Below, piece by piece: positions 7,912 to 53,600 of a DNA stretch of 64,000 nt; the first letter of the stretch is position 1, and each line of letters begins with the position of its first letter. The notes below the pieces were generated by a model. It was not told the origin of the DNA, made no database searches, and saw only the letters and a list, made by a program, of their open reading frames with translations. Both the position numbers and the translations under genes were made by a program. Source of the stretch: Patescibacteria group bacterium (GTDB taxonomy: Bacteria > Patescibacteriota > Patescibacteriia > Patescibacteriales > UBA12465); the NCBI GenBank assembly GCA_041651095.1, contig JBAZJV010000001.1, forward strand, positions 147,835-211,834. Reading direction: 5' to 3'.

Positions 7912-7996
7912 CATTAGGCGGTAATTATTAGACGGCTTAAATTCCGGCTTGCGGCCGGTTTTTTTAAAACCAGGGCCGACATGATATAATAGAAAT

Positions 7997-29039: not shown

Positions 29040-29771
29040 TTAGCCTTTAGCCAGAACCAGGCCATAAATTTTTCCGGCTCCGCCCGCCTGCAAAGCTGAC
29101 GCCGCTTCATTCAAGGTCGCGCCGGTAGTTACGACGTCATCTATCAGGATGATTGTTTGCCCGGCGAGCGGCGCACCAGTCCAGACAAAGGCGCCGCGCA
29201 GATTCTGCTGGCGTTCCCGACCCTTTAATTTAGCCTGCACTTCAGTATGCTTGATGCGTCGTAAGCCGGCTAGCAGGGGATAGCCGAAAGCGGCGCCGAG
29301 CTCTCGGGCCAATAGTTCCGCCTGGTTGGAGCCGCGCCAATGGAGGCGCCGTTTAGCCAGCGGCACCGGCGCCAAGACCACCGTTTCCCAGAGATTCCGG
29401 CCCTGGACGGAATTTTCGGCCAAGGCGAGCCGCCCTTGCCAGAACAAGGTCAAAAAGCGTCCCAGCGGTTTAGCCAGCTCGGTCAGAAAATTGTATTTGA
29501 ATTTTTTGATCAGGCGAGAAAGCAGCGGATCTTCATAATCGCCGGCAATGAATAATCCGCTTAGCGCCGGCGCGGCTATTAGCGCCGTTTGCTCGGCGCT
29601 CCGGGGAGTTTTATAGAAACGCAGACGCCTGAAACAATCGGAGCAAAGCGCGGCGTCCTCCCGGCCGCAGCCATAGCAGGCAGCCGGGAACAGCCAGGCG
29701 AGCAAGAATGATCGAAGCAGGCCTAAAGGACGGAACATAATGGCCAAATTAAATTTTTTTAAAATATTCAT
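29040..29771 (-). CDS. comFC: ComF family protein (ComFC-type phosphoribosyltransferase)
   Basis: 243 aa with the N-terminal zinc-finger-like CYGCGREDAALCSDC and the C-terminal PRTase motif ILIDDVVTTGATLNEAA. Confidence 0.85.
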   Translation of the reverse strand: MNILKKFNLAIMFRPLGLLRSFLLAWLFPAACYGCGREDAALCSDCFRRLRFYKTPRSAEQTALIAAPALSGLFIAGDYEDPLLSRLIKKFKYNFLTELAKPLGRFLTLFWQGRLALAENSVQGRNLWETVVLAPVPLAKRRLHWRGSNQAELLARELGAAFGYPLLAGLRRIKHTEVQAKLKGRERQQNLRGAFVWTGAPLAGQTIILIDDVVTTGATLNEAASALQAGGAGKIYGLVLAKG

Positions 29772-33905: not shown

Positions 33906-35666
<1,761 letters not shown>

Positions 35667-35681
35667 GTTTTTTAGAATCAT

Positions 35682-36887
35682 ATGCCTATTTTCAAATATC
35701 AAGCGGAGGATGCGAGCGGCCGGAGCCGCCGCGGCCAAGTCGTCGGCCTGTCCGAGGCGGAAGTGACCGCCAAGCTGCGCAAGCAGGACTTGAACGCGAC
35801 CAGCATCCAGGATGTGACGAATACGCCGTTAAGCCGTTTTTCCCGCTTGATCGCGCCGGTCCGCGCCAAGGATCTGGTCATTTTCGCCCGCCAGTTCTCG
35901 GTCATGATTTCTTCCAATGTCCCGGTGGTGGAATCCCTCTTGGTGCTGGTCGATCAGACGAACAACCTGTCTTTGAAGAACTTGATCGCCGACGTCGCCT
36001 ACGACGTCAACGCCGGCGCTTTTTTGTCCGACGCTCTGGCCAAGTACCCGAAGATCTTTTCCGAATTCTTCATCAATATCGTCCGCTCCGGCGAAACTTC
36101 CGGCAAACTGGATGAGGTGCTGAATTATTTGGCTGATGAAATGGAAAAGAATTACGACATGGTTTCCAAGATCCGCGGCGCCATGATTTATCCGGCCTTC
36201 ATCATTACCGCCCTCTTCGGCGTCGGCATCGTACTGATGGTCTACGTCATCCCGAACCTGACTTCCATTTTGACTGAAACCGGCGCGACTCTGCCGCTCT
36301 CGACCCGGCTAGTGATCTGGACTTCCAATTTTCTGATCGATTACGCGGTGCTCATCGTCATCGCCTTGGTTATTATCATCATCTTGGTCCGTCTTTATCT
36401 CCGGACCTATGCCGGCCGCCGGAACGTGGATAGCCTGAAGTTGCGCCTGCCGATTTTCGGACCGCTTTTCAAATACATCTATCTGATGCGTTTTTCCCGT
36501 TCCTTGTCGACGCTCCTGAAGGGAGGCGTGACCATCACCCGCAGCTTGGAAATCGTGGCGGACGTCGTCGGCAACCTGGTTTATCGCGAATTGATTCTGG
36601 ATACTCTGGAATCGATCAACGACGGCAATCCTTTCGCCACGGTTTTCGAGTCCAGCAAGTACGTTCCGAAAATGGTGCCGCAAATGATCGCCGTCGGCGA
36701 ACGGACCGGCAAAATAGACGCGGTCCTGGACCGGATTACGATCTTCTACACCCGGGAAAGCACCAATATGCTGGACAATCTCAGCAAGCTGATGGAGCCG
36801 CTCATCATGGTCATCATGGGCATCGGCGTCGGCGTGATGGTCGCCGCGGTCCTTCTGCCGATGTATAACCTGGCCAGCCAATTCTAA
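35682..36887 (+). CDS. pilC: type IV pilus platform protein PilC (GspF family)
   Basis: 401 aa with a duplicated GspF-type domain (FARQFSVMISSNVPVVESL, FSRSLSTLLKGGVTITRSL) and three TM regions. Confidence 0.9.
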   Translation: MPIFKYQAEDASGRSRRGQVVGLSEAEVTAKLRKQDLNATSIQDVTNTPLSRFSRLIAPVRAKDLVIFARQFSVMISSNVPVVESLLVLVDQTNNLSLKNLIADVAYDVNAGAFLSDALAKYPKIFSEFFINIVRSGETSGKLDEVLNYLADEMEKNYDMVSKIRGAMIYPAFIITALFGVGIVLMVYVIPNLTSILTETGATLPLSTRLVIWTSNFLIDYAVLIVIALVIIIILVRLYLRTYAGRRNVDSLKLRLPIFGPLFKYIYLMRFSRSLSTLLKGGVTITRSLEIVADVVGNLVYRELILDTLESINDGNPFATVFESSKYVPKMVPQMIAVGERTGKIDAVLDRITIFYTRESTNMLDNLSKLMEPLIMVIMGIGVGVMVAAVLLPMYNLASQF

Positions 36888-36900
36888 TTTACTCGGGATA

Positions 36901-36929
36901 TTGTGGTTTCCGAGCTCGGCTGTTATAAT
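36901..36929 (+). promoter_or_regulatory. promoter TTGTGG-N17-TATAAT (with TGt extended -10) for pilin gene 1
   Basis: TTGTGG 36901-36906 and TATAAT 36924-36929 preceded by TGT. RBS TAAGGAGA; ATG at 36961. Confidence 0.6.
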
Positions 36930-36960
36930 ATAGTGGTAAGGAGAATTAAAGAAAAAAAGT

Positions 36961-37443
36961 ATGTCTAAAATTAATCCCCGCCTGCCTCTGCTGACGGTTA
37001 ATGCGGCTGCTCGCCTGCGCGGCTTCACGCTGATCGAGCTCTTGGTAGTCATCGCCATCATCGGCCTGCTATCGACTCTCTCGGTCCTGGCCCTGAACAC
37101 GGCGCGAGCTAGAGCGCGTGACGCCAAGCGCGTCGCGGACGTGAAGCAGATTCAGACCGCTCTGGAAATGTATTACAACGACGTCGGCTCTTACCCGGCG
37201 ACGGCTTCGGTAGCTGCCGGTGCGGCCATTTCTACGACCAACGGCGTTTACCTGTCGGTCGTGCCGACTCCGCCGACCCCGTTTGATTTCACGACCGGCA
37301 ACTGCGTGGGTCAGCCCGAGTACACCTATACCGCCGACGGCTTAGCCCCTTATTCCACTTACCACATCAACTACTGCCTGGGCGCCCAGACCGGCGGCGT
37401 GAGCGCCGGCGCCAAGACCGCGACTCCGGCCGGTATCCAGTAA
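36961..37443 (+). CDS. type IV pilin (prepilin with a 21-aa leader)
   Basis: 160 aa. MSKINPRLPLLTVNAAARLRG/FTLIELLVVIAIIGLLSTL is the class III signal, cleaved at G/F with Glu at +5. Confidence 0.85.
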   Translation: MSKINPRLPLLTVNAAARLRGFTLIELLVVIAIIGLLSTLSVLALNTARARARDAKRVADVKQIQTALEMYYNDVGSYPATASVAAGAAISTTNGVYLSVVPTPPTPFDFTTGNCVGQPEYTYTADGLAPYSTYHINYCLGAQTGGVSAGAKTATPAGIQ

Positions 37444-37446
37444 ACC
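37021..37446 (+). repeat. pilin duplication, copy A
   Basis: 37021-37403 is identical to 37630-38012 (383 nt). A ~20-nt variable patch follows, then the copies are identical again through the stop codon. Confidence 0.95.
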
Positions 37447-37476
37447 GTTCGGCATCGCCGTCCTCTGCCAGATTCG

Positions 37477-37505
37477 TTGTGGTTTTTCGGGCGGTGTGAT
37501 ATAAT
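37477..37505 (+). promoter_or_regulatory. promoter TTGTGG-N17-TATAAT (with TGa extended -10) for pilin gene 2
   Basis: TTGTGG 37477-37482 and TATAAT 37500-37505 preceded by TGA. It has the same -35 hexamer and adjoining TTT as the pilin-1 promoter. Confidence 0.55.
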
Positions 37506-37611
37506 CATAAATAACTACAGGCGACAGAAGTGCGTCTCCATTTAAAATAATTTAATTTTTCAATTAGCGCCGGCATTAGCCGGATTGCGGTTGAGATAAC
37601 GCTACATATTT

Positions 37612-38052
37612 ATGAGCAAAAATCAAAAAGGCTTCACGCTGATCGAGCTCTTGGTAGTCATCGCCATCATCGGCCTGCTATCGACTCTCTCGGTCCTGGC
37701 CCTGAACACGGCGCGAGCTAGAGCGCGTGACGCCAAGCGCGTCGCGGACGTGAAGCAGATTCAGACCGCTCTGGAAATGTATTACAACGACGTCGGCTCT
37801 TACCCGGCGACGGCTTCGGTAGCTGCCGGTGCGGCCATTTCTACGACCAACGGCGTTTACCTGTCGGTCGTGCCGACTCCGCCGACCCCGTTTGATTTCA
37901 CGACCGGCAACTGCGTGGGTCAGCCCGAGTACACCTATACCGCCGACGGCTTAGCCCCTTATTCCACTTACCACATCAACTACTGCCTGGGCGCCCAGAC
38001 CGGCGGCGTGAGTTCCGGTCTTAAGACCGCCACTCCGGCCGGTATCCAGTAA
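37612..38052 (+). CDS. type IV pilin (prepilin with a 7-aa leader)
   Basis: 146 aa. MSKNQKG/FTLIELLVVIAIIGLLSTL. The mature part is identical to pilin 1 except SAGAK versus SSGLK near the C-terminus. Confidence 0.9.
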   Translation: MSKNQKGFTLIELLVVIAIIGLLSTLSVLALNTARARARDAKRVADVKQIQTALEMYYNDVGSYPATASVAAGAAISTTNGVYLSVVPTPPTPFDFTTGNCVGQPEYTYTADGLAPYSTYHINYCLGAQTGGVSSGLKTATPAGIQ

Positions 38053-38055
38053 ACC
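37630..38055 (+). repeat. pilin duplication, copy B
   Basis: See copy A. The offset between copies is 609 nt. Confidence 0.95.
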
Positions 38056-38085
38056 TCGGTTAGCAAAAATTTATCACAAGAAAAG

Positions 38086-38118
38086 TCCGTCGCACGGCCA
38101 GTGTCGGCGGGTTTTTTT
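38086..38118 (+). terminator. intrinsic terminator after pilin gene 2
   Basis: GC-rich hairpin TCCGTCGCAC-GGCCA-GTGTCGGCGGG (one bulge) followed by TTTTTTT. Confidence 0.65.
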
Positions 38119-38149
38119 GCTTGTTTGGCTTTTATGTTATACTGGCAAT

Positions 38150-39184
38150 ATGGAAATTTTTACTTTCGGCGACACTTTCAAGGATAAGTCGGCTTGGGAT
38201 GGTTTCGTCAAAAATGCCGGTGACCCGACTGGCGTCGTTCAAGGAGCAACCCCGCCGCCGGGCGGGGAGTATCTGCAGTCCTGGGAATGGGCCGAGATTT
38301 GGCGTGCCGGCGGCCAGGCCGTCAAGCGCTTTGGCTTGCGCGATAAAGGTAAAATCGTGGCAGCCGCGGCCGTTATCAAAGCGTCTCTACCCCTAGGGCA
38401 GCACTATTGGTATGCGCCGCGCGGACCGGTTTTTAGCCCAGACCTGCCAACTGACGCCAAACACTTGGCCAGCTATGTGGATGTCCTGAGCCGGGAATTG
38501 CGACGGCAGGATCCGCGGGCGATTTTTTGGCGCCTGGAGCCGGCTATCTATAGAACCGCGGGAGAAGTTTTGCCCTGGCTCAGGACCGTCGACCGGCAGC
38601 CGGCGCAAACTTTATTTTTAGATTTGTCGCCGAGCGAAGCCGAGCTGCTTGCCGCCATGGGACAGAAGACCCGCTACAATATCCGGCTCGCTGAAAAGAA
38701 AAACGTACGGATAAAATCTGGTCAAGCAACCGATTTTCCGGAGTTCTGGCGGCTGCTGCGATTGACCGGGGAACGGGACGGTTTCCGCACCCATACCCAG
38801 GAACATTACCGGCGCTTGTTAACGGCCGCGAACGGATTTATCAGGCTCCGCCTGGCCGAATATGAAGGCCGGATTATCGCCGCCGGACTATTCTGTTTCT
38901 GGGGCGGCCGGGCGACCTATTTGCACGGCGCCTCCGACAATGAGTACCGCAATGTGATGGCGCCGTATCTCCTGCAGTGGTCGGTCATTAAGGAAGCCAA
39001 GCAGTCGGGCGTCCGATGTTATGATTTTTACGGGCTTGATGAGCGGCGCTTCCCGGGCGTGACCCGGTTCAAACTCGGTTTCGGCGGCGAACGTTTCAAT
39101 TACCCCGGCACTTATGACCTGGTTTTCCGTCCGTCGACCTATCGGCTTTATGACCGGTTGCGGCGGCTGAAGCGGTCGATGTAA
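38150..39184 (+). CDS. FemAB family peptidoglycan interpeptide-bridge aminoacyltransferase
   Basis: ATG at 38150; the track start at 38117 is a TTG. Motifs YLQSWEWAEIW, TRYNIRLAEKKNV and YLHGASDNEYRNVMAPYLLQWSVIKEAKQSG..YDFYG. Confidence 0.8.
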   Translation: MEIFTFGDTFKDKSAWDGFVKNAGDPTGVVQGATPPPGGEYLQSWEWAEIWRAGGQAVKRFGLRDKGKIVAAAAVIKASLPLGQHYWYAPRGPVFSPDLPTDAKHLASYVDVLSRELRRQDPRAIFWRLEPAIYRTAGEVLPWLRTVDRQPAQTLFLDLSPSEAELLAAMGQKTRYNIRLAEKKNVRIKSGQATDFPEFWRLLRLTGERDGFRTHTQEHYRRLLTAANGFIRLRLAEYEGRIIAAGLFCFWGGRATYLHGASDNEYRNVMAPYLLQWSVIKEAKQSGVRCYDFYGLDERRFPGVTRFKLGFGGERFNYPGTYDLVFRPSTYRLYDRLRRLKRSM

Positions 39185-41917: not shown

Positions 41918-42406
41918 ATGAAAAAAGGATTCTCGCTCGTGGAAATAATCACCATTCTCTTCATCGTTTCGCTGGCTCTAGTCGGCATATTGTCTTTGCT
42001 TATCCAGAACATCCAGAGCCAGAGCTACAACAAGAACAACCTAATCGCCTACCAATTGGCCCAGGAGGGCGTCGAGCTGATCCGTAAAGTCCGGGATTCT
42101 AATTGGCGGGGGGCTAAGCAGCCCTTGAACCAGGTTTTTCAAAACGGGCAATTTTATATGGATTATCAGGATGCGTCTCCTCAGCCCTATAGCGGCTACG
42201 CGCCGGAATTGTCTTTGAAACAGGATAGTAACGGCTTTTATTTCCATGACACGGCTAGCGCGGCGCCAGACAGCGGCTTCCGACGCTTAATCGTTTTACA
42301 GAATGTCAGCGCCACCTCAATCCGGGTGATTTCCCGGGTTACCTGGACTGATCATCAACGTAATTATGCCTATGATTTGGAAACGATGCTCTATGACTGG
42401 CGCTAG
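41918..42406 (+). CDS. pseudopilin / minor pilin
   Basis: The ATG at 41918 gives MKKG/FSLVEIITILFIVSLALVGILSL. Confidence 0.8.
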   Translation: MKKGFSLVEIITILFIVSLALVGILSLLIQNIQSQSYNKNNLIAYQLAQEGVELIRKVRDSNWRGAKQPLNQVFQNGQFYMDYQDASPQPYSGYAPELSLKQDSNGFYFHDTASAAPDSGFRRLIVLQNVSATSIRVISRVTWTDHQRNYAYDLETMLYDWR

Positions 42407-42971
42407 ACCGGGCGGCGGCCGCTTCGGAAACTGCCGCGCGGCCGGTTTTTCCTTGATGGAAGTCGTGATGTCGGTGACCATCTTCGTCGTCATCATCCTG
42501 TCGGCTACAGGTATTTTCAAGCTGGTCATTGACAGCCAGCGGAGCGCGCTCGCGGCGCAGAATGTCCAGGAGAGCCTGAAATATTTCTTCGAAGTGGTGG
42601 ATAAGGAAATCCGCATGGCCCAGATCAATAAAGGGGTCTGTCCGGGCATCCCGAATAACCGGGTATATACGGTCACGACCGGTTCGCTCGGCGACAGCTT
42701 GTCTTTCCGGAACTATTATAACCAATGCGTGACTTATTCCCTGGTAGCCGATGGCACTAACCAGCGCTTCCAGGTCAGCCGCAACGGCATCGCCGATTTT
42801 ATCTCGCCGAAGAAAATCAAAATAGATACTCTGCACTTCATCCTTAACGATCTGGGCGCGGTTCAGCCCATGGTTACCTTGAATCTACGGGCGCATGCCT
42901 TGGACCAGGAGAAGTTCCAGTCGGATATGGTTATTCAGACCAGCCTGACCTCGCGGTATTATAAGGAATAA
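42393..42971 (+). CDS. pseudopilin / minor pilin
   Basis: The ATG at 42393 gives MTGARPGGGRFGNCRAAG/FSLMEVVMSVTIFVVIIL. It overlaps the previous gene by 14 nt. Confidence 0.7.
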   Translation: MTGARPGGGRFGNCRAAGFSLMEVVMSVTIFVVIILSATGIFKLVIDSQRSALAAQNVQESLKYFFEVVDKEIRMAQINKGVCPGIPNNRVYTVTTGSLGDSLSFRNYYNQCVTYSLVADGTNQRFQVSRNGIADFISPKKIKIDTLHFILNDLGAVQPMVTLNLRAHALDQEKFQSDMVIQTSLTSRYYKE

Positions 42972-43419: not shown

Positions 43420-43671
43420 ATGGAAAAATTTGCTAAAAATCGGCCATATTTGTTTTGGTCGACCACTAATTACCGGTCATTGTCACCGGCAGTGATTTTA
43501 GAAAATACCCTAAATTACGGAGATTTTTCAGATGTGCAGGAGTTGATGAGAGGGTTAGGGAAAAATCGGGCCGCTCTTATTTTTCGGCAACAACTGAAGA
43601 GCAAAAGGCATAATTATCAGCCGGCCGTAGCTAATTACTTTAAACTCTATTTCCGGAAATATGCACCTTGA
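43420..43671 (+). CDS. small hypothetical protein, upstream partner of the AbiEii-like gene (possible antitoxin)
   Basis: 83 aa from the ATG at 43420. A longer form from 43354 is possible but would contain the promoter. It overlaps the next gene by 11 nt. Confidence 0.5.
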   Translation: MEKFAKNRPYLFWSTTNYRSLSPAVILENTLNYGDFSDVQELMRGLGKNRAALIFRQQLKSKRHNYQPAVANYFKLYFRKYAP

Positions 43672-44272
43672 TATCTTGGCTGCCAAACAACAACGCCTGT
43701 TGCCCTGGCTGAAAGAATTCCGGCCAGATTTCGGTTTGGTCGGCGGCACGGCCTTGGCTTTGCAAATCGGCCACCGCCAGTCGATAGATTTTGATCTGTT
43801 CACTTGCCAAGAATTCGATAACTTAACTCTGCAACGCCGAATCTTCAAAAAAGAAAAAATCAGCAAAATTTTGGTTGACCAGCAAGGCGAGCTAACCGTT
43901 GTAGTCAAGGGCGTTAAAATCACTTTTTTATATTATCCTTTCAAGATCAGCTTTGCCGTGCCTTTGGCGAGCACTATCAAGATGGCGGACATCCTGACCA
44001 TCGCGGCTCTTAAAGCTTACGCCTTAGGGCGCCGGGCCAAGTGGAAAGACTATGTGGATCTATACGTGATTTTAAAAGATTTTTACACTCTACCGGAAAT
44101 AGTTAAAAAAGCCGAACAAATTTTTAAAAATAATTTTAACGAAAAAATCCTGCGAGCCCAGTTGGCTTATTTTAAAGATTTGGATTATTCGGAAAAAGTC
44201 ATTTATCAGCCTGGATACAAGATGGCCGACGCCAGCATCAAGAAATTTTTAACAGCCGTTAGTTTATCATAG
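43661..44272 (+). CDS. nucleotidyltransferase, AbiEii/DUF1814-like (type IV toxin-antitoxin toxin family)
   Basis: 203 aa. FGLVGGTALALQIGHRQSIDFDLFT matches the GGTAL....G.R.S.D.D signature as I recall it. Later AALKAYALGRRAKWKDYVDLY is also present. Confidence 0.55.
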   Translation: MHLDILAAKQQRLLPWLKEFRPDFGLVGGTALALQIGHRQSIDFDLFTCQEFDNLTLQRRIFKKEKISKILVDQQGELTVVVKGVKITFLYYPFKISFAVPLASTIKMADILTIAALKAYALGRRAKWKDYVDLYVILKDFYTLPEIVKKAEQIFKNNFNEKILRAQLAYFKDLDYSEKVIYQPGYKMADASIKKFLTAVSLS

Positions 44273-44285
44273 GCTAATTGTTTTA

Positions 44286-47200
44286 ATGCCCCGATTCTAT
44301 AGTCGGAAAACCGGAATATTACTTTTTGCTTTATTATTAAGCGGCGGTTTTTTGTTATTCTCTAACGCTAAAAACGCCCAAGCCTATCATGCCACTTCCA
44401 GCTATAATAAAACTTTTAACGATACCCTGACTTCCCAGAATTGGAACGACCTGTTCAGCGATTTTGTAAATACCTGGTTGCCGGTTTCTTTGAACGGCCC
44501 GGTCGGCATCGCCACGGGAGCGCCGGCCGCCGGACTGAGCGTCAACGGGCCGGTTAACGCGACCAACCTGTTTACAGGCGGATTGTTCACGACCGGCAAC
44601 GTCGGCGTCGGGACGACCAATCCCGGCTCCAACCTGCATATCGTCGGCAGCTTGGACGCTTCCGGCACGGTAAACGGCACCGGCCTCTGCATCGCCGGCG
44701 TTTGCAAGACCGACTGGAGCGGCGTCGGCGCGACCAGCGGCTGGACGATAAACGGCACGACGGTCTATAAGACGGATACGAACGGGAATGTGGGAGTGGG
44801 GACAACCAACCCCGCAGCGACTCTTAATTTAGAAAGATCAAACGCCGCAGGAGCGCCATCCTTAAGACTTTCATTGTCGGACAGTCCGGCGTCATATAGA
44901 GTAGATCTGAAGGCGCAGTATGACGATGTCACATCACTTGCCTTGCAGCAATCAGGACAGAACATACTGACGGCCGGCCGATCTCCGTCGAAGACTGCCC
45001 TTTATACCTTTAATGGCGGAGGAACTTCAAACGAAAGGATTACAATCCTCGGCAGTTCAGGCAACGTCGGCATCGGGACGACTAACCCCGTCCAAAAGCT
45101 AGCCATAGCCAATGGGCGCTTGTTAGTGGATAATTATAATACTTATTCCGAGGGTTCCATACAGAATAATTTAGCGGAATTTACTTTGCGTACAACGAAC
45201 GGGCCCAATTATTCATCGGTTTATTCTTATCAGACCATTGATTCTAGTAATGGCGGGAGCAATAACGCGCAGGCTAATTGGTTATTAGCTGTAAATAATG
45301 CGACGGCCGGCGACTACCAACTAGGAGGGCTTAGCTTGTACCCCGCTAACTATTGGACCGCGTCCAAGCGTGGTTTGTATGTATATTCCACCAACGTTCC
45401 GATTAAGTTCGCCACCGGCATTGGAGCGCAAAGTTCCAAGCTTTATGGCGCTGATGACGCCAATGTCAAGATGACCATAGATAATAACGGCCGAGTCGGA
45501 ATCGGAACGACGAACCCCGGCAACCAGCTGACGGTAAACGGCCGAGGCGGTTTCAATAACGACCAAGTCACTATCGGCGGCACTTCCGGCTTAGCGGCGG
45601 AAAGAATATATCTAAATTACGATGGCGCCAATACCTTAGGGAGACTTAATGCCATCAGCGGAGTAGGTCTGAGTTTTGGCAGCAACGGAGCGAATGATCG
45701 TCTGGTTATTACCTCTGGCGGCAACATCGGCATCGGGACTACTGCCCCCGGCTCCAATCTCGACGTCGTCGGCAGCATCAACGCTTCCGGCACGGTGAAC
45801 GGCACCGGTCTCTGCATCGGCGGCGACTGCAAAGTCAGCTGGCCAGCCATCATTGCCGCCGGAGGAGGGAATCTTTGGAGCGGCACGACGACCGGAGCGA
45901 TTTGGAATGCGAATTCCGGGGATGTCGGGATCGGGACGACGGCGCCGGGGGCGAGAATAGAAATAAAGGGAAGTGGTAATACGTTTGCTACTACAAATTT
46001 TAGGTTAGCTAATTCAGATAATACAACAATATTCACAGTCCAAGATCATTCCGTGGGTAAGTTTACGGGGCAATTTCAGATTTTAGGTGGAACCGGGACA
46101 AACCAATTATATGTTCAGGATGGGGGGGCATATATTGCCGGCAACGTCGGCATCGGAACCAGCACGCCGACACAACAGCTGGCAGTCGGCGGAAATGGCA
46201 ATATCTGGTTAGCTGGCAGCAACCCGGGTATATTCTTGATGGATACTCCCAGCGCGGACGGGTATGGTTATAGGATTTATAACGATGGCGATTCTATTGT
46301 AGGCAACTTAGTGACTAATGCCGGCGCCGGGGCGACTCAGATATTTGATTTTAAATACGGCAATCCGTCAGTGTATTCATTCACCGGCAATACCGTCAGA
46401 TTTGGCATCGGCACTTCTACGCCGACGGCCAATCTGGAAATCTACCAATATTCCAGCGACGCTGATTTGCTGAAGCTCTCCTCGGCAGGAGGTTCCAGTG
46501 GAGACTTGTTAACCGTAAGAAACAGTGGCAACGTCGGTATCATGAAATCCAGCCCCGGCGCCAACTTAGACGTCGTCGGCAGCATCAACGCCTCCGGCAC
46601 GGTAAACGGCACCGGCCTCTGTATTGGCGGTGACTGCCGTACTTCCTGGGCAGCGGCCGGCGCCTATTGGACCGGCTATGGCAGCGATATAGCCAGCAAT
46701 AACTCCGGTAATGTCGGTGTAGGGACGACAGCCCCTTCCCAGAAGCTTCATGTCGCAGGCGGAGCCTATATAACGCAAAGAACCGGGATTGGCGTTACCC
46801 CTGGCGGCCACGGGTCCATCTTATCTGCTCAACTTGATGGGAGCAACGGGCAGAGAGGTGTAGTGGTTTTCAATAATACAGGCGATACGGACAATGACCA
46901 GCAGTTGTTCGCAGGCCTTAATCATTCCGGCAATTTCACATCTTGGATAAACGGCGCGGGCTCAGCTTACTTCGGCGGCAACGTCGGGATCGGGACAACC
47001 GCTCCTAGTAACAGGTTGCATACGGTTGGTTTTGGATCATATCCAGGTAACTTATCTGAAATTCCGCAGTACTCTCATATAAGGTTTCAACCGCGAAGCG
47101 ATCAGAACGGCTCTCTTTTTATAGCTGGCAATAGCGATTCATCAACCCTTATTATTCAAGGCGCTTTAGACGGAACTACCGCTAGGGCAATTTCATTGAA

Positions 47201-50200
47201 TCCGTACGGCGGCAATGTCGGTGTGGGAGTGATGACTCCGGCGGCTAAGTTACAGGTTGCTGGCGGGCAATTGTATCTAAGCGGGAAGGGGAGTGCCACG
47301 GGACTGACTTTTACTAACCACTCTATTTATCAGGATGCCAATAATATTTTGATCCTTGATTCTTCCGGAAATCAGAATATGGCTTTTATGCCAGGAACGG
47401 GTAATATCGGCATCGCCAAGACAAATCCCAGCTCCAACCTGGATGTCGTCGGCAGCATAAACGCTTCCGGCACCGTGAACGGCACCGGCCTCTGCATCGG
47501 CGGGGACTGTAAAGTTTCTTGGCCGGCCATCATCGCCGCCGGCGGAGGGAACCTCTGGAGCGGCACGACGACCGGGGCGATCTGGAATGCGAATTCCGGG
47601 GATGTCGGGATCGGGACGACGGCGCCGGGGGCGAGAATAGAAATAAAGGGAAGTGGTAATACGTTTGCTACTACAAATTTTAGGTTAGCTAATTCAGATA
47701 ATACAACAATATTCACAGTCCAAGATCATTCCGTGGGTAAGTTTACGGGGCAATTTCAGATTTTAGGTGGAACCGGGACAAACCAATTATATGTTCAGGA
47801 TGGGGGGGCATATATTGCCGGCAACGTCGGCATCGGAACCAGCACGCCGACACAACAGCTGGCAGTCGGCGGAAATGGCAATATCTGGTTAGCTGGCAGC
47901 AACCCGGGTATATTCTTGATGGATACTCCCAGCGCGGACGGGTATGGTTATAGGATTTATAACGATGGCGATTCTATTGTAGGCAACTTAGTGACTAATG
48001 CCGGCGCCGGGGCGACTCAGATATTTGATTTTAAATACGGCAATCCGTCAGTGTATTCATTCACCGGCAATACCGTCAGATTTGGCATCGGCACTTCTAC
48101 GCCGACGGCCAATCTGGAAATCTACCAATATTCCAGCGACGCTGATTTGCTGAAGCTCTCCTCGGCAGGAGGTTCCAGTGGAGACTTGTTAACCGTAAGA
48201 AACAGTGGCAACGTCGGTATCATGAAATCCAGCCCCGGCGCCAACTTAGACGTCGTCGGCAGCATCAACGCCTCCGGCACGGTAAACGGCACCGGCCTCT
48301 GTATTGGCGGTGACTGCCGTACTTCCTGGGCAGCGGCCGGCGCCTATTGGACCGGCTATGGCAGCGATATAGCCAGCAATAACTCCGGTAATGTCGGTGT
48401 AGGGACGACAGCCCCTTCCCAGAAGCTTCATGTCGCAGGCGGAGCCTATATAACGCAAAGAACCGGGATTGGCGTTACCCCTGGCGGCCACGGGTCCATC
48501 TTATCTGCTCAACTTGATGGGAGCAACGGGCAGAGAGGTGTAGTGGTTTTCAATAATACAGGCGATACGGACAATGACCAGCAGTTGTTCGCAGGCCTTA
48601 ATCATTCCGGCAATTTCACATCTTGGATAAACGGCGCGGGCTCAGCTTACTTCGGCGGCAACGTCGGGATCGGGACAACCGCTCCTAGTAACAGGTTGCA
48701 TACGGTTGGTTTTGGATCATATCCAGGTAACTTATCTGAAATTCCGCAGTACTCTCATATAAGGTTTCAACCGCGAAGCGATCAGAACGGCTCTCTTTTT
48801 ATAGCTGGCAATAGCGATTCATCAACCCTTATTATTCAAGGCGCTTTAGACGGAACTACCGCTAGGGCAATTTCATTGAATCCGTACGGCGGCAATGTCG
48901 GTGTGGGAGTGATGACTCCGGCGGCTAAGTTACAGGTTGCTGGCGGGCAATTGTATCTAAGCGGGAAGGGGAGTGCCACGGGACTGACTTTTACTAACCA
49001 CTCTATTTATCAGGATGCCAATAATATTTTGATCCTTGATTCTTCCGGAAATCAGAATATGGCTTTTATGCCAGGAACGGGTAATATCGGCATCGCCAAG
49101 ACAAATCCCAGCTCCAACCTGGATGTCGTCGGCAGCATAAACGCTTCCGGCACCGTGAACGGCACCGGCCTCTGCATCGGCGGGGACTGTAAAGTTTCTT
49201 GGCCGGCCATCATCGCCGCCGGCGGAGGGAACCTCTGGAGCGGCACGACGACCGGGGCGATCTGGAATGCGAATTCTGGCAATGTGGGGATTGGGACGAC
49301 AAACCCTCTTTCTAAATTTGAAATTTATGGTGGAAATCTAAATATACGTAATAATGATAATGGAATAAATGTATTAGGTTTAGGTCTAGCCACATCAGAT
49401 AGCGGCGCACCTGGTGGTGCATATGGTACCTCTTTTATTGTTGGTAACTCTAGCACTGGTTCAGGCCATCCTTCTTCACTTGCGTTCTATACAGAATCTA
49501 GTGGTGCTGTTGGTGAACGAGTACGTATTGATTCCATAGGCAACGTCGGGATCGGGACCACTAGCCCGGCTGGAAAGCTGGAAGTGAGTGGGACGGCAAT
49601 AATAAATAACACCCTGACATTAAATGGCGCTGGTTCGGCAATAGAACAAATTTGGAAGGGGGGCACCTGGTATCACATAAAAGCAAATGCGAGCAATTTG
49701 TTTAATATATTTGAAGATAACTATGAAACTACAAGGAATATTGCTTTAGTGGCCGGAAATGTCGGGGTGGGGACGACAGCGCCTTCTTCAAAGCTGCAGG
49801 TTGGCGCAACGACAGGAAGCAACTTTATTACCTTAGCTGGCGGCGTCACCGGAGCAAGCTATGGTATTGATTGGTCATTTAATAACCCGGGCGTAAATAA
49901 GTATGCCCAAGTTATGTTCTCTTATGATGATAGGTCCACAAAGGGGCTCCAATTCAATATCAATAATGGATATCAGATGTCGTTTAACAGGATCGATACC
50001 GTTGGTACATTCCAAGCTAATTTAATGACAATACTATCGGCCGGCAACGTCGGCATCGCCAAGACTAATCCCGGCACTACACTGGATGTTACTGGCGGTA
50101 TTAACGCTTCCGGCACGGTGAACGGTACGGGTCTCTGCATCGGCGGGGACTGTAAAGTTTCCTGGCCCTCCATCGTTTCGGCCGGCGGCGGCAATCTCTG

Positions 50201-50597
50201 GAGCGGCACGACGACCAGTGCGATTTGGAACGCTAATATCGGCTATAATGTCGGTATCGGGACGACTAATCCGCAGGCCACCCTGCAAGTGGCTGGCGGT
50301 CTGTCATTGAACCGGACGACGGTAGCGGACGCTGACTATACGACCCAGTCTACGGATTACATCATCGGTTATACTACGCTCACCACAAATCGGACAGTTA
50401 CCCTGCCTAATGCTTTATGCACGCCGGGCCGTTTCTTCGTGGTCTTGGATGAAAGCGGCAGCGCTTCGGCCAGCAAGAAGATCATCATTGATCCGGAAGG
50501 CGCGACGACCATCGTCGGCCAACCTACTTTTACGCTCTCCGGCGCCTACAATTCTGTCTACGTTTTCTGTGGCAGTTCGGCTTGGTATGTGTTATAA
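44286..50597 (+). CDS. giant secreted/surface repeat protein, tail-fibre-like
   Basis: 2103 aa with an N-terminal signal/anchor (ILLFALLLSGGFLLF). It has more than 20 G-N-V-G-I-G-T-T-x-P-xxx-L-x-V motifs and 7 two-Cys modules ASGTVNGTGLCIGGDCKxSW. Confidence 0.85.
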   Translation: MPRFYSRKTGILLFALLLSGGFLLFSNAKNAQAYHATSSYNKTFNDTLTSQNWNDLFSDFVNTWLPVSLNGPVGIATGAPAAGLSVNGPVNATNLFTGGLFTTGNVGVGTTNPGSNLHIVGSLDASGTVNGTGLCIAGVCKTDWSGVGATSGWTINGTTVYKTDTNGNVGVGTTNPAATLNLERSNAAGAPSLRLSLSDSPASYRVDLKAQYDDVTSLALQQSGQNILTAGRSPSKTALYTFNGGGTSNERITILGSSGNVGIGTTNPVQKLAIANGRLLVDNYNTYSEGSIQNNLAEFTLRTTNGPNYSSVYSYQTIDSSNGGSNNAQANWLLAVNNATAGDYQLGGLSLYPANYWTASKRGLYVYSTNVPIKFATGIGAQSSKLYGADDANVKMTIDNNGRVGIGTTNPGNQLTVNGRGGFNNDQVTIGGTSGLAAERIYLNYDGANTLGRLNAISGVGLSFGSNGANDRLVITSGGNIGIGTTAPGSNLDVVGSINASGTVNGTGLCIGGDCKVSWPAIIAAGGGNLWSGTTTGAIWNANSGDVGIGTTAPGARIEIKGSGNTFATTNFRLANSDNTTIFTVQDHSVGKFTGQFQILGGTGTNQLYVQDGGAYIAGNVGIGTSTPTQQLAVGGNGNIWLAGSNPGIFLMDTPSADGYGYRIYNDGDSIVGNLVTNAGAGATQIFDFKYGNPSVYSFTGNTVRFGIGTSTPTANLEIYQYSSDADLLKLSSAGGSSGDLLTVRNSGNVGIMKSSPGANLDVVGSINASGTVNGTGLCIGGDCRTSWAAAGAYWTGYGSDIASNNSGNVGVGTTAPSQKLHVAGGAYITQRTGIGVTPGGHGSILSAQLDGSNGQRGVVVFNNTGDTDNDQQLFAGLNHSGNFTSWINGAGSAYFGGNVGIGTTAPSNRLHTVGFGSYPGNLSEIPQYSHIRFQPRSDQNGSLFIAGNSDSSTLIIQGALDGTTARAISLNPYGGNVGVGVMTPAAKLQVAGGQLYLSGKGSATGLTFTNHSIYQDANNILILDSSGNQNMAFMPGTGNIGIAKTNPSSNLDVVGSINASGTVNGTGLCIGGDCKVSWPAIIAAGGGNLWSGTTTGAIWNANSGDVGIGTTAPGARIEIKGSGNTFATTNFRLANSDNTTIFTVQDHSVGKFTGQFQILGGTGTNQLYVQDGGAYIAGNVGIGTSTPTQQLAVGGNGNIWLAGSNPGIFLMDTPSADGYGYRIYNDGDSIVGNLVTNAGAGATQIFDFKYGNPSVYSFTGNTVRFGIGTSTPTANLEIYQYSSDADLLKLSSAGGSSGDLLTVRNSGNVGIMKSSPGANLDVVGSINASGTVNGTGLCIGGDCRTSWAAAGAYWTGYGSDIASNNSGNVGVGTTAPSQKLHVAGGAYITQRTGIGVTPGGHGSILSAQLDGSNGQRGVVVFNNTGDTDNDQQLFAGLNHSGNFTSWINGAGSAYFGGNVGIGTTAPSNRLHTVGFGSYPGNLSEIPQYSHIRFQPRSDQNGSLFIAGNSDSSTLIIQGALDGTTARAISLNPYGGNVGVGVMTPAAKLQVAGGQLYLSGKGSATGLTFTNHSIYQDANNILILDSSGNQNMAFMPGTGNIGIAKTNPSSNLDVVGSINASGTVNGTGLCIGGDCKVSWPAIIAAGGGNLWSGTTTGAIWNANSGNVGIGTTNPLSKFEIYGGNLNIRNNDNGINVLGLGLATSDSGAPGGAYGTSFIVGNSSTGSGHPSSLAFYTESSGAVGERVRIDSIGNVGIGTTSPAGKLEVSGTAIINNTLTLNGAGSAIEQIWKGGTWYHIKANASNLFNIFEDNYETTRNIALVAGNVGVGTTAPSSKLQVGATTGSNFITLAGGVTGASYGIDWSFNNPGVNKYAQVMFSYDDRSTKGLQFNINNGYQMSFNRIDTVGTFQANLMTILSAGNVGIAKTNPGTTLDVTGGINASGTVNGTGLCIGGDCKVSWPSIVSAGGGNLWSGTTTSAIWNANIGYNVGIGTTNPQATLQVAGGLSLNRTTVADADYTTQSTDYIIGYTTLTTNRTVTLPNALCTPGRFFVVLDESGSASASKKIIIDPEGATTIVGQPTFTLSGAYNSVYVFCGSSAWYVL
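45903..49276 (+). repeat. perfect tandem duplication, period 1680 nt (560 codons), ~2.0 copies
   Basis: By line-by-line comparison, bases 45903-47596 are identical to 47583-49276. The flanking partial copy 45720-45902 is only ~80-90 percent similar to 47400-47582. Confidence 0.95.
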
Positions 50598-50645: not shown

Positions 50646-53600
50646 ATGAAGTTTAGAATAAAAAATCTCGGGAAGATTTTTACCCTGGTCTTTTTGGTTA
50701 TCCTGGGGGTTTTTTATTTCTCGGCCATCGCCCGCGCCGCTTTTATCACCTCCGGCGGTTCGCAGTGGACTGACGTTTCGGGCGGCATATATTATACCGG
50801 CAATATCGGGGTCGGAACGTCAACGCCAACCGGGCCGCTAGATGTTATGACTAGCGGTGCGGATGGTGGATTTAGAGTAAGGTATAATGGTAATGGAGCC
50901 GAATGGTTTAGTGTTGGCAATGGTGGTACCGGAGTTGTCAGATTTGGTGCTGCCGGAGGATATACTGATGTAGGCGGTGCCGGAAACTTAGGCGGTCGTA
51001 TGAACATTAGCTCTCTTAATACTGGTGGCTCCGTTCCGCTAGTTTTAACTGGAGTAACCAGCCAGACGGCTAATTTATTTGAAATTAATGATATTGGCGA
51101 TCAATCAGGAAACAAGTTTGTCGTCCAATTTGGCGGGAATGTCGGTGTTGCTAAGACCAACCCCGGAACCACTTTAGATATCGTCGGCGGCCTGAACGCC
51201 TCCGGCACCGTAAACGGTACCGGGCTCTGCATTAGCAGCGACTGCCGTACTTCCTGGGCGGCGGCGGGAGCGTATTGGACGGGGAACGGGAGTAATATTT
51301 ATAGCAATAATTCCGGGAATGTGGGAATCGGGACGACGACACCAAATTATAAATTATATGTAAATGGGATAACATACATTTCAGGAGATGTTTTAGGGGG
51401 TGGTTTTGTTACGGATAATGGTTTCTATGCAATGAATACTAAATATGGGTGGAGCGATTATTATAGTATCTATGCAAAGACTGGTATAAATGCTCAATTA
51501 AATAATACGACCCAAGGGCCATTTAATATTTGGTCATCACAATTGAATGTCCATTCGGGTTTGTATGTCTCGGGCAACGTCGGCATCGCCAAGACTAACC
51601 CCGGCACGACCCTGGATATCGTCGGCGGTATCAACGCTTCCGGCACCGTCAATGGCACCGGCCTCTGTATCGGCGGAGACTGTAAGACTACCTGGCCGAC
51701 CATAGTTCAGGCCGGTCTGCCTTCCGGCACGGCCGGACAGACCCTCTATAGTGACGGGACTCAATGGTTAACCAGTTCCGCGTTGATTAATAACGGCACG
51801 AATATCGGGATCGGGACGACGAATCCTGTTGAAAAATTATCCGTAAGCGGAAATATGTATATTACAGGAACGAGTTCATTGATAGGAAAAGTTGGAATTG
51901 GGACCAACTCTCCTGACCCAGTTAGAAAATTAACCATAAAAGCTGGAAGAGATGCACAAAATTATGGCGGATCTATAGCTTTTTATAATGATAATTATTC
52001 TTCCGGAAGAAATTTTTATATTGGTAATGTGTATGATGGAGTAAATGCAATGCGTTTTCAAGTTGGGCGGTATGATAATTCTACATATAATGACTTTTTT
52101 TCTATTACAGAATCTGGCAATGTCGGGATAGGGACGACGGCGCCCGTGGGCGCGCTAGACACAGTTTTAGGATCAGGAACATGGAGTAAATATACTGAGA
52201 TAGTATTAGCTCAAGAAAGTGATAACCCCTCCGTTAGAATGTATCGACCAGCCGGATCTGGGACATTAAGAACGCCCTGGTGGATTTCAATTGAAAATAG
52301 TGCTTTACAATTTAAGACTGGCAGTAATGCTGAATTAGGCAACGAAAGCGTTGCTTCAAAGTTAACAATATTGAATGGTGGCAATGTCGGCATCGCGAAG
52401 ACCAACCCCGGCACGACCCTGGATATTACCGGCGGCGTCAGCGCCTCCGGCACCGTAAACGGCACCGGCCTCTGCATTGCCGGCGACTGCCGCACTTCCT
52501 GGGCGGCAGCGGGGGCTTATTGGACGGGGAACGGTAACAACGTATATAGCAATAATTCCGGCAATGTCGGGATCGGGACGACCAACCCGGTCGGCAAGCT
52601 TGATGTCCGGCCGGCTGGCAATAACGGCAATGGTAAAATTTATGTCGGCGGCGATAATACTTATCCGCGCCTGTATATGGGCGGCGATAGTACCACCGTG
52701 GCCGGCGTATTCAACCGGACGCAGGGTAGCGCTACTATGTATTTCGGAGAATTTTCAGATACGGGCGGCTTTGAGATGCGCGGCACCGGCAACTATAATT
52801 TCGGCGCCGACCGCCTGTTCCTGTCATCCGGCGGCAATACCGGTATCGGCACGACCAATCCCTTATCCAAGCTGGACGTCTATAATGGCAATATCGGCGT
52901 CTCTAATAATGTCGCCTCCGGCGGCAATGCGAGCGGCCTCATTTTCTATCACACCGCCGGCTTGGGCAGCAATTGGTACTCCGGCCTGGTTCCTTATGTG
53001 ACCAGCAGCTATGATCGGGTCGGTTTGAAATTCTTGACCGCGAATTCGGGGGCGGCCACGGAAAAAATGGTCATTGCTCCGGATGGTAATGTGGGAATCG
53101 GGACGACGAATCCGCTTACTAAATTGCATATTTCCAGTGGAGATTTTTCGATTAATCGCGCCAGCACATCTACTTTTGCTAATTTAGGTTGGCAAACGGC
53201 GGGGGCGGCTAAATGGTGGTTAGGATTAAGAAACGACGGAACTGATCAATTATACCTATATGATCAGGCTGCCGGACAAGCTAGGGTTACGTTCAGTCAA
53301 AATGGCAACGTCGGAATTGGGACGACGAATCCAACACAGGCTAGATTGGTGAGCGCTGGAACTGCATCAGTCGGGCCGTATGTTGGATTGAATGATAATA
53401 ACGTCAAGATATTTGAGATAACTTATGGCGCGGGCCGCGATGGAGTATTAAAACTTTTTAAAAATGATACGACATTAAATGTCTTATTAAATTCCAATGG
53501 AAATAGTTATGTAAACTCTGGCAACGTCGGCATCGCCAAGACCGATCCCGGCACCACCCTAGATATTGTCGGCGGTTTGAGCGCCTCCGGCACGGTGAAC

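Follow-up and report, generated by a model that had tools for sequence, protein, structure and literature searches.

In the Neisseria pilE/pilS system, the donor cassettes are silent, promoterless and 5'-truncated, and a G-quadruplex-forming sequence lies upstream of the expression locus. The genes for the two major pilins of S. sanguinis, PilE1 and PilE2, are adjacent. Their products co-assemble in one heteropolymeric filament at a ratio of about 4:3 (PMC6497953, PMC10628169). Saccharibacteria encode PilA1 and PilA2 at separate loci with separate machineries, and the two pilins form two distinct filaments (PMC11623550). These pilins are highly expressed and serve in host association and motility, and type IV pili mediate host attachment and motility in cultivated Patescibacteria (PMC11623550). 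Outside pilus systems, Salmonella tufA and tufB undergo concerted evolution through RecA-type gene conversion, with tracts bounded by the limits of homology (PMC5485169).

Few surface machines are conserved in Patescibacteria, and type IV pili are one of them. We examined a pilus locus in a 64-kb stretch of DNA from a Patescibacteria metagenome-assembled genome (hereafter the window) whose nearest named relatives are Falkowbacteria-like, and compared it with related loci designated L001, L002, L005, L088, L166 and L167. The gene order is pilM-pilB-pilC-pilin-pilin-femAB, with three minor pilins downstream. The pilin genes are encoded with assembly machinery (PilM, PilB, PilC and the minor pilins), and the same synteny was seen in L001, L002 and L005; the femAB neighbour is likewise present in L001, L002, L088 and L167. 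The most probable explanation of this locus, and one that we hold with good confidence, is an old tandem pilin pair whose bodies were recently homogenised by gene conversion, while each gene kept its own promoter and leader and the pair kept a two-residue difference. The features on which this reading draws are as follows.

33906-35666, plus strand: pilB-type assembly ATPase (PF00437 T2SSE, 422 bits, plus MshEN)
35682-36887, plus strand: pilC-type platform protein (PF00482 T2SSF, 187 bits)
36901-36929, plus strand: promoter-like site A, TTGTGG-N17-TATAAT with a TGt extended -10; positional counterpart after pilC in L001 and L005
36961-37443, plus strand: pilin copy A (site 1), predicted 160-aa prepilin (PF07963 N_methyl, 30.7 bits; MFA5154960.1)
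37021-37403, plus strand: exact repeat from the Gly(-1) codon to mature residue 127, proposed conversion tract, copy A side
37404-37422, plus strand: divergent island, copy A version (S-A-G-A-K-T-A)
37477-37505, plus strand: promoter-like site B, TTGTGG-N17-TATAAT with a TGa extended -10; counterparts in L001, L088 and L005
37550-37599, plus strand: conserved copy B 5'UTR element, made up of ATTTAATTTTTCAATTAGC (37550-37568), a variable GC-rich hairpin and GTTGAGATAA (37590-37599)
37612-38052, plus strand: pilin copy B (site 2), predicted 146-aa prepilin (PF07963, 39.7 bits; MFA5154961.1; AF2 model)
37630-38012, plus strand: exact repeat, proposed conversion tract, copy B side
38013-38031, plus strand: divergent island, copy B version (S-S-G-L-K-T-A), unique in the window
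38086-38118, plus strand: intrinsic terminator after copy B (GC-rich hairpin plus U7), conserved in L001 and L088
38150-39184, plus strand: femAB-family gene, right-hand synteny anchor (PF02388, 148 bits)

Both ORFs are identified by their predicted products as type IV prepilins and as major type IV pilin genes. Each scored above the Pfam cut-off of 21.2 for N_methyl (PF07963). With the cleavage point marked by a slash, the motif context reads RG/FTLIELLVVIAIIGLLSTLS in copy A and KG/FTLIELLVV in copy B; Gly(-1), Phe(+1), Glu(+5) and about 20 hydrophobic residues are present in both, and these columns are invariant in 83 homologs. The pilin family alignment also contains two invariant Cys. The AF2 model of copy B is a lollipop with a 52-residue alpha1 (helix 10-61) and a five-strand beta-sheet (pLDDT 84.4, pTM 0.72). 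Foldseek against the PDB gave PAK pilin 1oqw as its best match, a weak one (E 0.05, probability 0.92) that adds little beyond Pfam and AF2, and profile matches to solved pilins were mostly restricted to alpha1. T4a major pilins are distinguished from T4b pilins by a leader of under about 10 aa, Phe(+1) and a small mature protein. The 7-aa leader of copy B is of T4a-like length, and copy A has a 21-aa leader of T4b-like length on the same 139-aa Phe(+1) body. No prepilin peptidase (PilD, Peptidase_A24) was matched in Pfam scans of 27 ORFs of the 64-kb window, and among window ORFs of at least 120 aa no GxGD-type motif was found in a search for PilD in these 64 kb of the contig.

A preliminary description of this DNA had reported a 383-nt identity between the two pilin ORFs that begins at the Gly-Phe cleavage site, a patch of about 20 nt, and renewed identity through the stop codon. 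Each of these points was reproduced. Positions 37021-37403 equal positions 37630-38012, with zero mismatches over 383 nt at an offset of 609. Identity begins with the Gly(-1) codon, at its first base; one base earlier the copies already differ, and upstream identity is 0 nt. The patch holds seven differences in a 19-nt span (37404, 37405, 37410-37413 and 37422 in copy A numbering), which give SAGAK in copy A and SSGLK in copy B, so that the mature proteins differ at 2 of 139 residues (A/S and A/L). The 24 nt 3' of the patch (37423-37446) are again identical, through TAA plus 3 nt, and beyond that point similarity is absent and the flanks are unrelated. When seven differences were placed at random in 426 nt, none of 200,000 placements fell within 19 nt (analytic estimate, about 5e-8).

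The genes had also been called recently duplicated. If a lone pilin gene had been duplicated in tandem recently, and the leader, promoter region and C-terminal patch had then diverged, the 383 nt with zero differences would be accounted for, and single-copy relatives (L002 and L167) agree with this. However, a duplication would have copied the flanks too, whereas identity is confined to the interval between the Gly(-1) codon and 3 nt past the stop. Within the 19 nt of the patch there are 3 synonymous and 4 non-synonymous nucleotide differences, including a 3-nt Ala-to-Leu codon change; the 383 nt before it contain none. L001 and L088 have the spacer and 5'UTR of copy B too, again placed between two pilin genes, and the within-genome identity of L001 carries its own 22 genome-specific substitutions. 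We therefore regard a recent duplication as very improbable.

The pilB and pilC genes of L001 are each 79.6% identical in nucleotides to those of the window. The two-gene pilin layout is the same in L001 and L088. The ATTTAATTTTTCAATTAGC block is exact in the window, L001 and L088 (blastn), and the GTTGAGATAA block was recognised in these three by reading of the sequences. The terminator and the femAB promoter are common to the same three, and the site-1 promoter follows pilC in the window, L001 and L005. Because the copy-2 5'UTR block, the terminator and the femAB promoter are common to the window, L001 and L088, the tandem pair appears to be old and to predate the split from genomes whose pilB and pilC are about 80% identical in DNA. 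This age is anchored by those three genomes, to which the site-1 promoter adds L005. The earlier label thus needs correction: only the homogenisation would be recent.

In the 167 nt that begin at Gly(-1), there were 0 differences between copies A and B of the window and 0 between the two pilin genes of L001. The window and L001 differ over the same 167 nt at 22 positions, all common to both paralogs. Since paralogs are identical within genomes and share 22 differences between genomes, these comparisons demonstrate concerted evolution, apparently by gene conversion, in at least two genomes; its recurrence in other tandem pairs is shown by the exact shared runs given below. The preliminary description had preferred gene conversion and had proposed comparing related strains for conversion tracts; the contrast of 0/167 within and 22/167 between genomes supports the first, and such tracts were found in the identity pattern of L001 and in exact runs of other tandem pairs. 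In 45 distinct tandem major-pilin pairs, the longest exact shared run was that of the window (383 nt), followed by runs of 167, 151, 137 and 98 nt. Homogenisation was partial and patchy in most relatives. Identical and divergent stretches meet at sharp, mosaic boundaries. In other tandem pairs identity extends through the leader up to the ATG, whereas in the window it stops at Gly(-1); this pattern suggests that tracts extend only as far as homology does, and the 5' end in the window would lie at the Gly(-1) codon because homology stops there. Cassette types occupy opposite sites in L001 and L088, and a 700-bp contig, L166, joins the site-1 upstream region of L001 to a site-2 body across a 176-nt repeat.

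The patch itself appears to be old. In the last 78 nt, copy A matches its L001 ortholog at 73 of 78 positions and copy B at 71 of 78. In the L088 pair the same two codons differ, with 1 difference in the 23 nt before them and none in the 29 nt after. Across relatives, residue X of the motif AG-X-[HK]-TATPAGI is A, L, P, W, Y, F, E, D, M, V or T, and this position, hypervariable family-wide, falls in the last beta strand of the AF2 model. Three synonymous changes, the closer match of copy A to L001 and the recurrence of the same codons in L088 point to old divergence, either unconverted or re-imported, at a hypervariable position. The patch described earlier as variable is thus real, and its better description is such old divergence. 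If the DNA 3' of 37403 was simply left unconverted, 24 identical nt after the patch would be expected in roughly 2-8% of cases at 10-15% divergence (estimate); alternatively, the patch may reflect two separate events, mismatch repair that was patchy, or sequence brought in from a third allele.

Promoter-like site A begins 14 nt after the pilC stop codon. The TTGTGG-N17-TATAAT site with extended -10 attributed earlier to each copy was confirmed at both positions. The two had been called look-alikes, which holds for the shape of the motif; the spacers of sites A and B differ, and the motif is that of the genome's own consensus. The window contains 5 occurrences of the shape TTG-N17-TGnTATAAT where 0.05 would be expected; 2 of the 5 are the pilin sites, and the shape is found upstream of every pilin gene in the related loci. 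The counterparts of site A in L001 and L005 read GGATATTGyGG/CC ... TATAAT. The sites thus follow the promoter-like consensus of the genome and are not copies of each other. A simple promoter scanner missed both because TTGTGG fits TTGACA at only 3/6 positions. In the copy B 5'UTR, a fold prediction supported the hairpin between the two conserved blocks. An Rfam search of 36800-38200 at E up to 1 matched no family and thus pointed to no known riboswitch or leader RNA. Between copy A and promoter-like site B no intrinsic terminator was found, a hairpin plus U7 being present only after copy B. With a terminator after site 2 alone, both promoters probably drive site 2, and only the first would drive site 1. 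Both pilin genes would be expressed.

A metagenome-assembled contig carrying a 383-nt exact repeat, longer than common k-mer sizes, raises the question of an assembly artefact, in which two strain variants were stitched in tandem or polishing falsely equalised the copies. The join across the 176-nt repeat in L166 indicates that shortcuts or real recombinants occur at such repeats, and protein look-ups and genome and metagenome scans found no second assembly of the same strain. Against an artefact, the arrangement of copy 1 3' end, spacer (carrying the promoter and the conserved 5'UTR), copy 2, terminator and femAB also appears in independent assemblies from other samples (L001/L007 and L088), and the region is without Ns or breaks. 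In addition, two distinct entries (the leaders) and two distinct exits (the patches, each joined to unique flanks) leave the published order, by reasoning, as the sole linear path that uses all pieces. An artefact is accordingly given very little weight.

The leaders differ sharply. That of copy A has 21 aa, MSKINPRLPLLTVNAAARLRG, encoded by 36961-37023 including Gly(-1); that of copy B has 7 aa, MSKNQKG, and its DNA is unrelated. Both ORFs and the two leader lengths given earlier were confirmed, and the NCBI annotation of MFA5154960.1 and MFA5154961.1 uses the same two starts. The earlier observation depended on the start at 36961, and apart from this ATG, no ATG, GTG or TTG lies downstream of the in-frame stop at 36937 and ahead of Gly(-1); the long leader is forced because the ORF has a single possible start codon. 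A leader of at least 18 aa was needed by 8 of 149 related pilins (5%). The minor pilin at 42366-42971 in the same locus has no ATG, GTG or TTG start nearer than 18 codons, and the site-1 pilin of L005 has a forced 20-aa basic leader. A single PilD processes leaders of 8-18 aa in S. sanguinis (PMC6497953). Long leaders are tolerated, and that of copy A is unusual but not unique; prepilin peptidase presumably cleaves it.

The copy A leader was also searched for an origin. Searches of the window and 165 loci by blastn-short and tblastn gave chance-level matches only, and a database search with the leader plus alpha1N (41 aa), a query too short to inform, yielded no match at E up to 0.001. A derivation of the leader from degenerate pilin sequence was rejected: the leader aligned locally to the pilin gene no better than shuffled sequences, which scored at least as well in 974 of 1000 cases for DNA and 433 of 2000 for protein. 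A 7-nt direct repeat, CGCCTGC, flanks 30 nt within the leader (chance about 9%, estimate) and could be the mark of an insertion into a 10-11-aa leader.

This leader raises the possibility that conversion is real and copy A is useless, its body kept passively from copy B and its product poorly made or unprocessed. The GC-rich leader is unique, with no homolog detected, leaders of 5-9 aa are found in 83% of the 149 related pilins, and a 20-codon stretch is stop-free in frame by chance in about 38% of cases (estimate). A just-overwritten body gives no sign of selection: the intact copy A body is uninformative because conversion would just have rewritten it. On the other side, the promoter-like element of site 1 matches the full consensus, with only five such elements in 64 kb, and the basic leader ends in R-G/F. 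Site-1 genes are kept in L001, L005 and L088, the L005 site-1 pilin likewise bears its long basic leader, and long leaders occur on further pilins of these loci. An AAGGAG lies 17 nt upstream of the copy A start; it is neutral on that start because only about 5 of 42 window genes have a well-spaced Shine-Dalgarno sequence. The ATG lies in an A/T-rich context typical of this largely Shine-Dalgarno-free genome. These results make a useless copy A unlikely.

For the preferred reading, an old pair with recently homogenised bodies, we propose the following course. Sites 1 and 2 between pilC and femAB would each have their own promoter-like element and 5'UTR, and the coding bodies would exchange sequence by intrachromosomal, homology-dependent gene conversion. 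In one very recent event in the window genome, at least 383 nt would have been copied between the genes, with zero mismatches since. The 5' end of the tract would be set by the limit of homology between a lineage-specific site 1 leader and an unrelated site 2 leader, and the 3' end would lie just before the 19-nt island of older divergence over the hypervariable position. The outcome would be two independently driven genes whose mature pilins differ at two residues (A/S and A/L). The direction of conversion and the number of events are matters that we infer, as is a role for selection, rather than chance, in preserving the A/L difference.

A broader and rather unlikely reading treats the pilC-femAB interval as a two-site expression system, in which differing promoters, 5'UTRs and leaders are stable, cassettes are repeatedly copied or swapped, and selection retains one or more surface differences between the products. 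It would place under one scheme the opposite cassettes of L001 and L088, the homogenised copies of the window and the collapse to one gene in L166. If it were true, the difference under selection would be the A/L residue at the hypervariable C-terminal position, pili might be mixed or switchable with different host or DNA binding, and the long leader of site 1 might be a device altering the timing or rate of maturation.

Recurrent conversion of pilin genes makes pilin trees and calls of recent duplication potentially misleading in these genomes. Tandem pilin loci are places where short-read assemblies break or take shortcuts (L088 and L166). The few positions that escape homogenisation, here the hypervariable residue of the last beta strand, may confer functional specificity.

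Compared with the described systems, this locus is a tidy and fairly ordinary case of well-known concerted evolution, with no new mechanism. As in Salmonella tufA and tufB, which are expressed (PMC5485169), two full-length paralogs would be kept near-identical by non-reciprocal transfer, tracts end at homology limits, and within-genome paralogs are closer than between-genome orthologs. Unlike the tuf genes, the pilin genes are adjacent and in direct orientation (609-nt offset) and encode a fast-evolving surface protein in place of a conserved translation factor; homogenisation is patchy in most relatives, and conversion here is proposed from sequence comparison. With Neisseria pilE/pilS the locus would share non-reciprocal recombination between pilin copies, and it has in common conserved N-terminal DNA that serves as homology and variable, cassette-like C-terminal parts. 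In contrast to pilE/pilS, both copies are full-length with a start codon and a promoter-like site, no G-quadruplex motif (G3+N1-7 x4) was found on either strand of 36000-38300, and the outcome in the source genome is homogenisation, not diversification.

Like S. sanguinis, this bacterium without an outer membrane has two major pilins with extensive identity in its pil locus. Two adjacent, closely related major pilin genes are present, the gene arrangement of an S. sanguinis-type heteropolymeric pilus. The mature proteins here differ at only the two positions and the leaders are threefold apart in length, whereas the PilE leaders are both long. Saccharibacteria PilA1 and PilA2 belong to the same phylum and are likewise small, T4a-like lollipop major pilins; in contrast to their arrangement, the two near-identical genes described here lie in one locus behind one pilB/pilC.

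Two type IV pilin ORFs lie in tandem between pilC and femAB, and both of their starts are those of the NCBI annotation of the source MAG, on a 223-kb contig.

36961-37443, pilin copy A (site 1), 160 aa, NCBI MFA5154960.1
37612-38052, pilin copy B (site 2), 146 aa, NCBI MFA5154961.1
Upstream of the pilin pair: pilM, two or three small unannotated genes, pilB, pilC
Downstream of the pilin pair: femAB, ybeY, a 477-aa protein, three minor pilins

In both copies the N-terminal methylation motif of prepilins scored above the Pfam cut-off, and both carry G↓FTLIE with Glu5. The AlphaFold model, built from 83 homologs and graded confident (pLDDT 84.4), is a lollipop with a helix at residues 10-61 and five strands, the last at residues 136-141. 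Two cysteines are invariant. Pilin homologs number in the thousands and come almost entirely from Patescibacteria MAGs, many labelled Falkowbacteria. Matches among solved structures were T4a pilins and pseudopilins, mostly via alpha1. A ComFC-like protein (double zinc ribbon plus phosphoribosyltransferase domain; 29040-29771, minus strand) is encoded about 1.4 kb upstream of pilM, with one 410-aa ORF between. Directly after the minor-pilin genes comes an AbiEii-type toxin nucleotidyltransferase (43661-44272, plus strand). Two giant ORFs (44286-50597, 2103 aa; 50646-56045, 1799 aa) are made of dozens of GNVGIGTTxP-type repeats, with 35 copies of a 47-nt unit and 13 of a 143-nt unit. One repeat within this stretch, spaced at 1680 nt and exact over at least 247 nt (46508-46754 = 48188-48434), is a further candidate for recent recombination or assembly trouble.

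A base-by-base comparison of the two pilin copies, offset by 609 nt, gave 383 nt without mismatch (37021-37403 = 37630-38012). Identity starts at the first base of the codon for Gly(-1), the last leader residue before the prepilin cleavage site, with 0 nt of identity upstream. Seven mismatches follow the repeat (37404, 37405, 37410-37413 and 37422) and form a 19-nt patch; the next 24 bases, including the stop codon and 3 nt beyond it, are identical, and similarity then ends. Clustering of 7 mismatches within 19 of 426 aligned positions was matched in 0 of 200,000 simulations and cannot be random scatter. The preliminary description had claimed 383 shared nucleotides, a patch of about 20 nt followed by identity through the stop codon, and a duplication beginning exactly at the cleavage site, and the comparison bore out all three.

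The pilin genes had also been described as recently duplicated, a claim that did not survive comparison with syntenic loci fetched for the closest homologs.

L001: two pilin genes between pilC and femAB; pilB and pilC each 79.6% identical to the window in nucleotides
L088: two pilin genes (copy 1 cut); 1136-bp contig from another sample
L005: two pilin genes; no femAB called downstream of the pair
L002 and L167: one pilin gene between pilC and femAB; single-copy lineage

L088 contains the 3' end of copy 1, the spacer, a complete copy 2, the terminator and the start of femAB. The copy-2 5'UTR blocks ATTTAATTTTTCAATTAGC and GTTGAGATAA are conserved in the window, L001 and L088, the first of them exactly in all three genomes, as are the terminator hairpin 3' of the second copy and the femAB promoter. 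Because these elements are common to the three, the second copy is the same locus in each. In the window, L001 and L005 the site-1 pilin lies directly after pilC, and its promoter has the form GGATATTGyGG/CC...TATAAT. By these shared flanking features the two expression sites are orthologous across genomes about 20% apart in housekeeping-like pilus genes, and the tandem pair is old, not recent. A fresh tandem duplication of one pilin gene is contradicted: the spacer is orthologous across genomes and the flanks are not duplicated.

The copy-2 5'UTR element lies at 37550-37599 in the window, 6509-6560 in L001 and 283-334 in L088; its two blocks can pair, enclosing a GC-rich hairpin of different sequence in each genome (n = 3 sequences), and no Rfam match to the element was found. 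A TTTTCAAT(T/C)TATG motif stands right at the start codon in the single-copy or more distant relatives L002, L167 and L125. Two tandem promoter-like repeats (AGTATTGCGC...TG.TATAAT, twice) precede the sole pilin gene of L002 (5819-6003) and L167 (30-185); they may be left over from the two-site arrangement or may have preceded it.

In the window the two copies show no difference across the first 167 nt counted from Gly(-1), and neither do the two L001 copies. Between the two genomes the same 167 nt differ at 22 positions, every one common to both paralogs. The same genome-specific synonymous changes in both paralogs are a textbook signature of concerted evolution. Identity within genomes together with shared differences between them indicates concerted evolution by gene conversion, the probable explanation of the near-identical pilin bodies; conversion keeping the mature pilin alike had been proposed in the preliminary description, and the comparison supports it. 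It is possible, at a modest level, that copy A is a passenger kept intact by conversion.

The fetched Patescibacteria loci yielded 45 distinct tandem major-pilin pairs, whose longest exact shared runs were 383 nt (the window), then 167, 151, 137 and 98 nt. Identity in the other pairs extends through the leader to the ATG, so that tract ends coincide with the ends of homology; such coincidence has been measured in the Salmonella tuf genes (PMC5485169). The leaders of copies A and B are unrelated, which is why homology in the window stops at the Gly(-1) codon. This unrelatedness explains the exact boundary, and no role of the cleavage site itself is needed. Homogenising conversion is already well known as a process; no description of it between tandem expressed pilin genes in Patescibacteria was found in the literature searched.

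The patch codons of copy A/copy B are AGC/AGT, GCC/TCC, GGC/GGT, GCC/CTT and GCG/GCC. Three of these changes are synonymous; of the two replacements, Ala/Ser involves a single base and Ala/Leu all three. The last 78 nt of copy A are identical to its L001 ortholog at 73/78 positions and to copy B at 71/78. The patch is old divergence, not new mutation. The Ala/Leu position, within the last strand of the AlphaFold model, is the X of the C-terminal motif AG-X-[HK]-TATPAGI; it varies more than any other residue of this motif, which is conserved elsewhere, and relatives have A, L, P, W, Y, F, E, D, M, V or T there. In the L088 pair (GLH vs GAH) the differences fall at the same two codons, with near-identical sequence on either side, and the L005 pair likewise has L vs A at the Ala/Leu position. 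We read the patch as a putative unconverted or re-imported gene end, located where a difference is tolerated or favoured; given the 24 identical bases beyond the patch, a second event or patchy repair may also have been involved.

An assembly artefact is an unlikely origin of the tandem pair: the same architecture occurs in independent assemblies, and with two distinct entries and two distinct exits the published order is the only linear path. Joins across repeats of this kind do turn up in assemblies, or in real populations, as L166 illustrates. L166 (ENA k141 contig, 700 bp) matches L001 5915-7390 exactly apart from one junction, where the site-1 promoter, 5'UTR and first codons lead across a 176-nt exact repeat into the site-2 body, terminator and femAB; its pilin product is P0002. 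Either its sample contained a genuine recombinant with one gene deleted, or the assembler took a shortcut.

The leaders were said to differ sharply, and they do. Copy A has a single canonical start, ATG 36961 (also the NCBI start), downstream of the in-frame stop at 36937 and ahead of the cleavage site, so its 21-residue leader is unavoidable if translation begins at a canonical start. The fetched loci gave 149 distinct major-type pilins. Their minimum leader length was 5-9 aa for 83%, while 12 pilins need at least 15 aa and 8 need at least 18 aa, so that the 21-aa leader is uncommon but not isolated. In L005, too, the site-1 pilin has a forced leader, of 20 aa and basic, which ends in Ala(-1), a residue found in 11 of the 149. 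The third minor pilin of the window (42366-42971, ..AAG↓FSLMEV) has no ATG, GTG or TTG fewer than 18 codons from the cleavage site; its L001 ortholog has a possible start only 3 codons ahead of that site. A single S. sanguinis peptidase processes leaders 8-18 aa long (PMC6497953). Homology searches detected no relative of the copy A leader, and its derivation from pilin sequence was rejected on comparison of the two. Long-leader pilins of L021, L065, L077, L143 and L145 carry a degenerate first class III motif (..KKGF(T/I)xH..) and then an intact G↓FTLIE; in protein P0069 the first 26 residues are repeated exactly head-to-tail. Long leaders in the phylum may often come from recombination placing a fresh N-terminus behind an old one.

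Each copy has its own promoter-like site, as claimed, but the two look-alikes are not copies of one another. Their spacers differ, and related loci show the same promoter shape with TTGCGG, TTGTCC or TTGTGT; the likeness therefore comes from a shared genome-wide consensus rather than copying. TGnTATAAT occurs 14 times in the window (2.4 expected), mostly just upstream of genes, and the full TTG-N17-TGnTATAAT five times (0.05 expected), two of these being the pilin sites. A hairpin with U7 follows copy B only, not copy A, making read-through from promoter A into copy B likely. Most window genes lack a Shine-Dalgarno sequence (about 5 of 42 have a well-spaced one), so the badly spaced AAGGAG ahead of copy A counts neither for nor against its start. 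Starts 6-7 nt after a TATAAT/TATACT box were seen for femAB at 38150 (box-start region 38138-38152), an ORF at 7997 (7982-7999) and the L005 site-1 pilin (L005 5425-5441); this short distance suggests leaderless mRNAs.

Variable central cassettes were compared between L001 (6001-7006) and L088 (1-781). Types that share an indel seem to be at opposite sites in the two loci, which suggests that cassettes moved between the expression sites. L001 copy 2 and L088 copy 1 both lack the same 6 nt and are 72% identical in the loop region; the longer loop is found in L001 copy 1 and in L088 copy 2, with 68% identity, and cross-comparisons gave 59-61%. A speculative reading of the arrangement is a two-site system that would exchange pilin cassettes between differently regulated sites. 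Its resemblance to Neisseria pilE/pilS is superficial: the window pair showed neither silent truncated cassettes nor a G4 motif, both defining features of that system. In biology the closest match is the two-major-pilin pili of S. sanguinis; in mechanism it is tuf, with its concerted evolution of duplicated bacterial genes.
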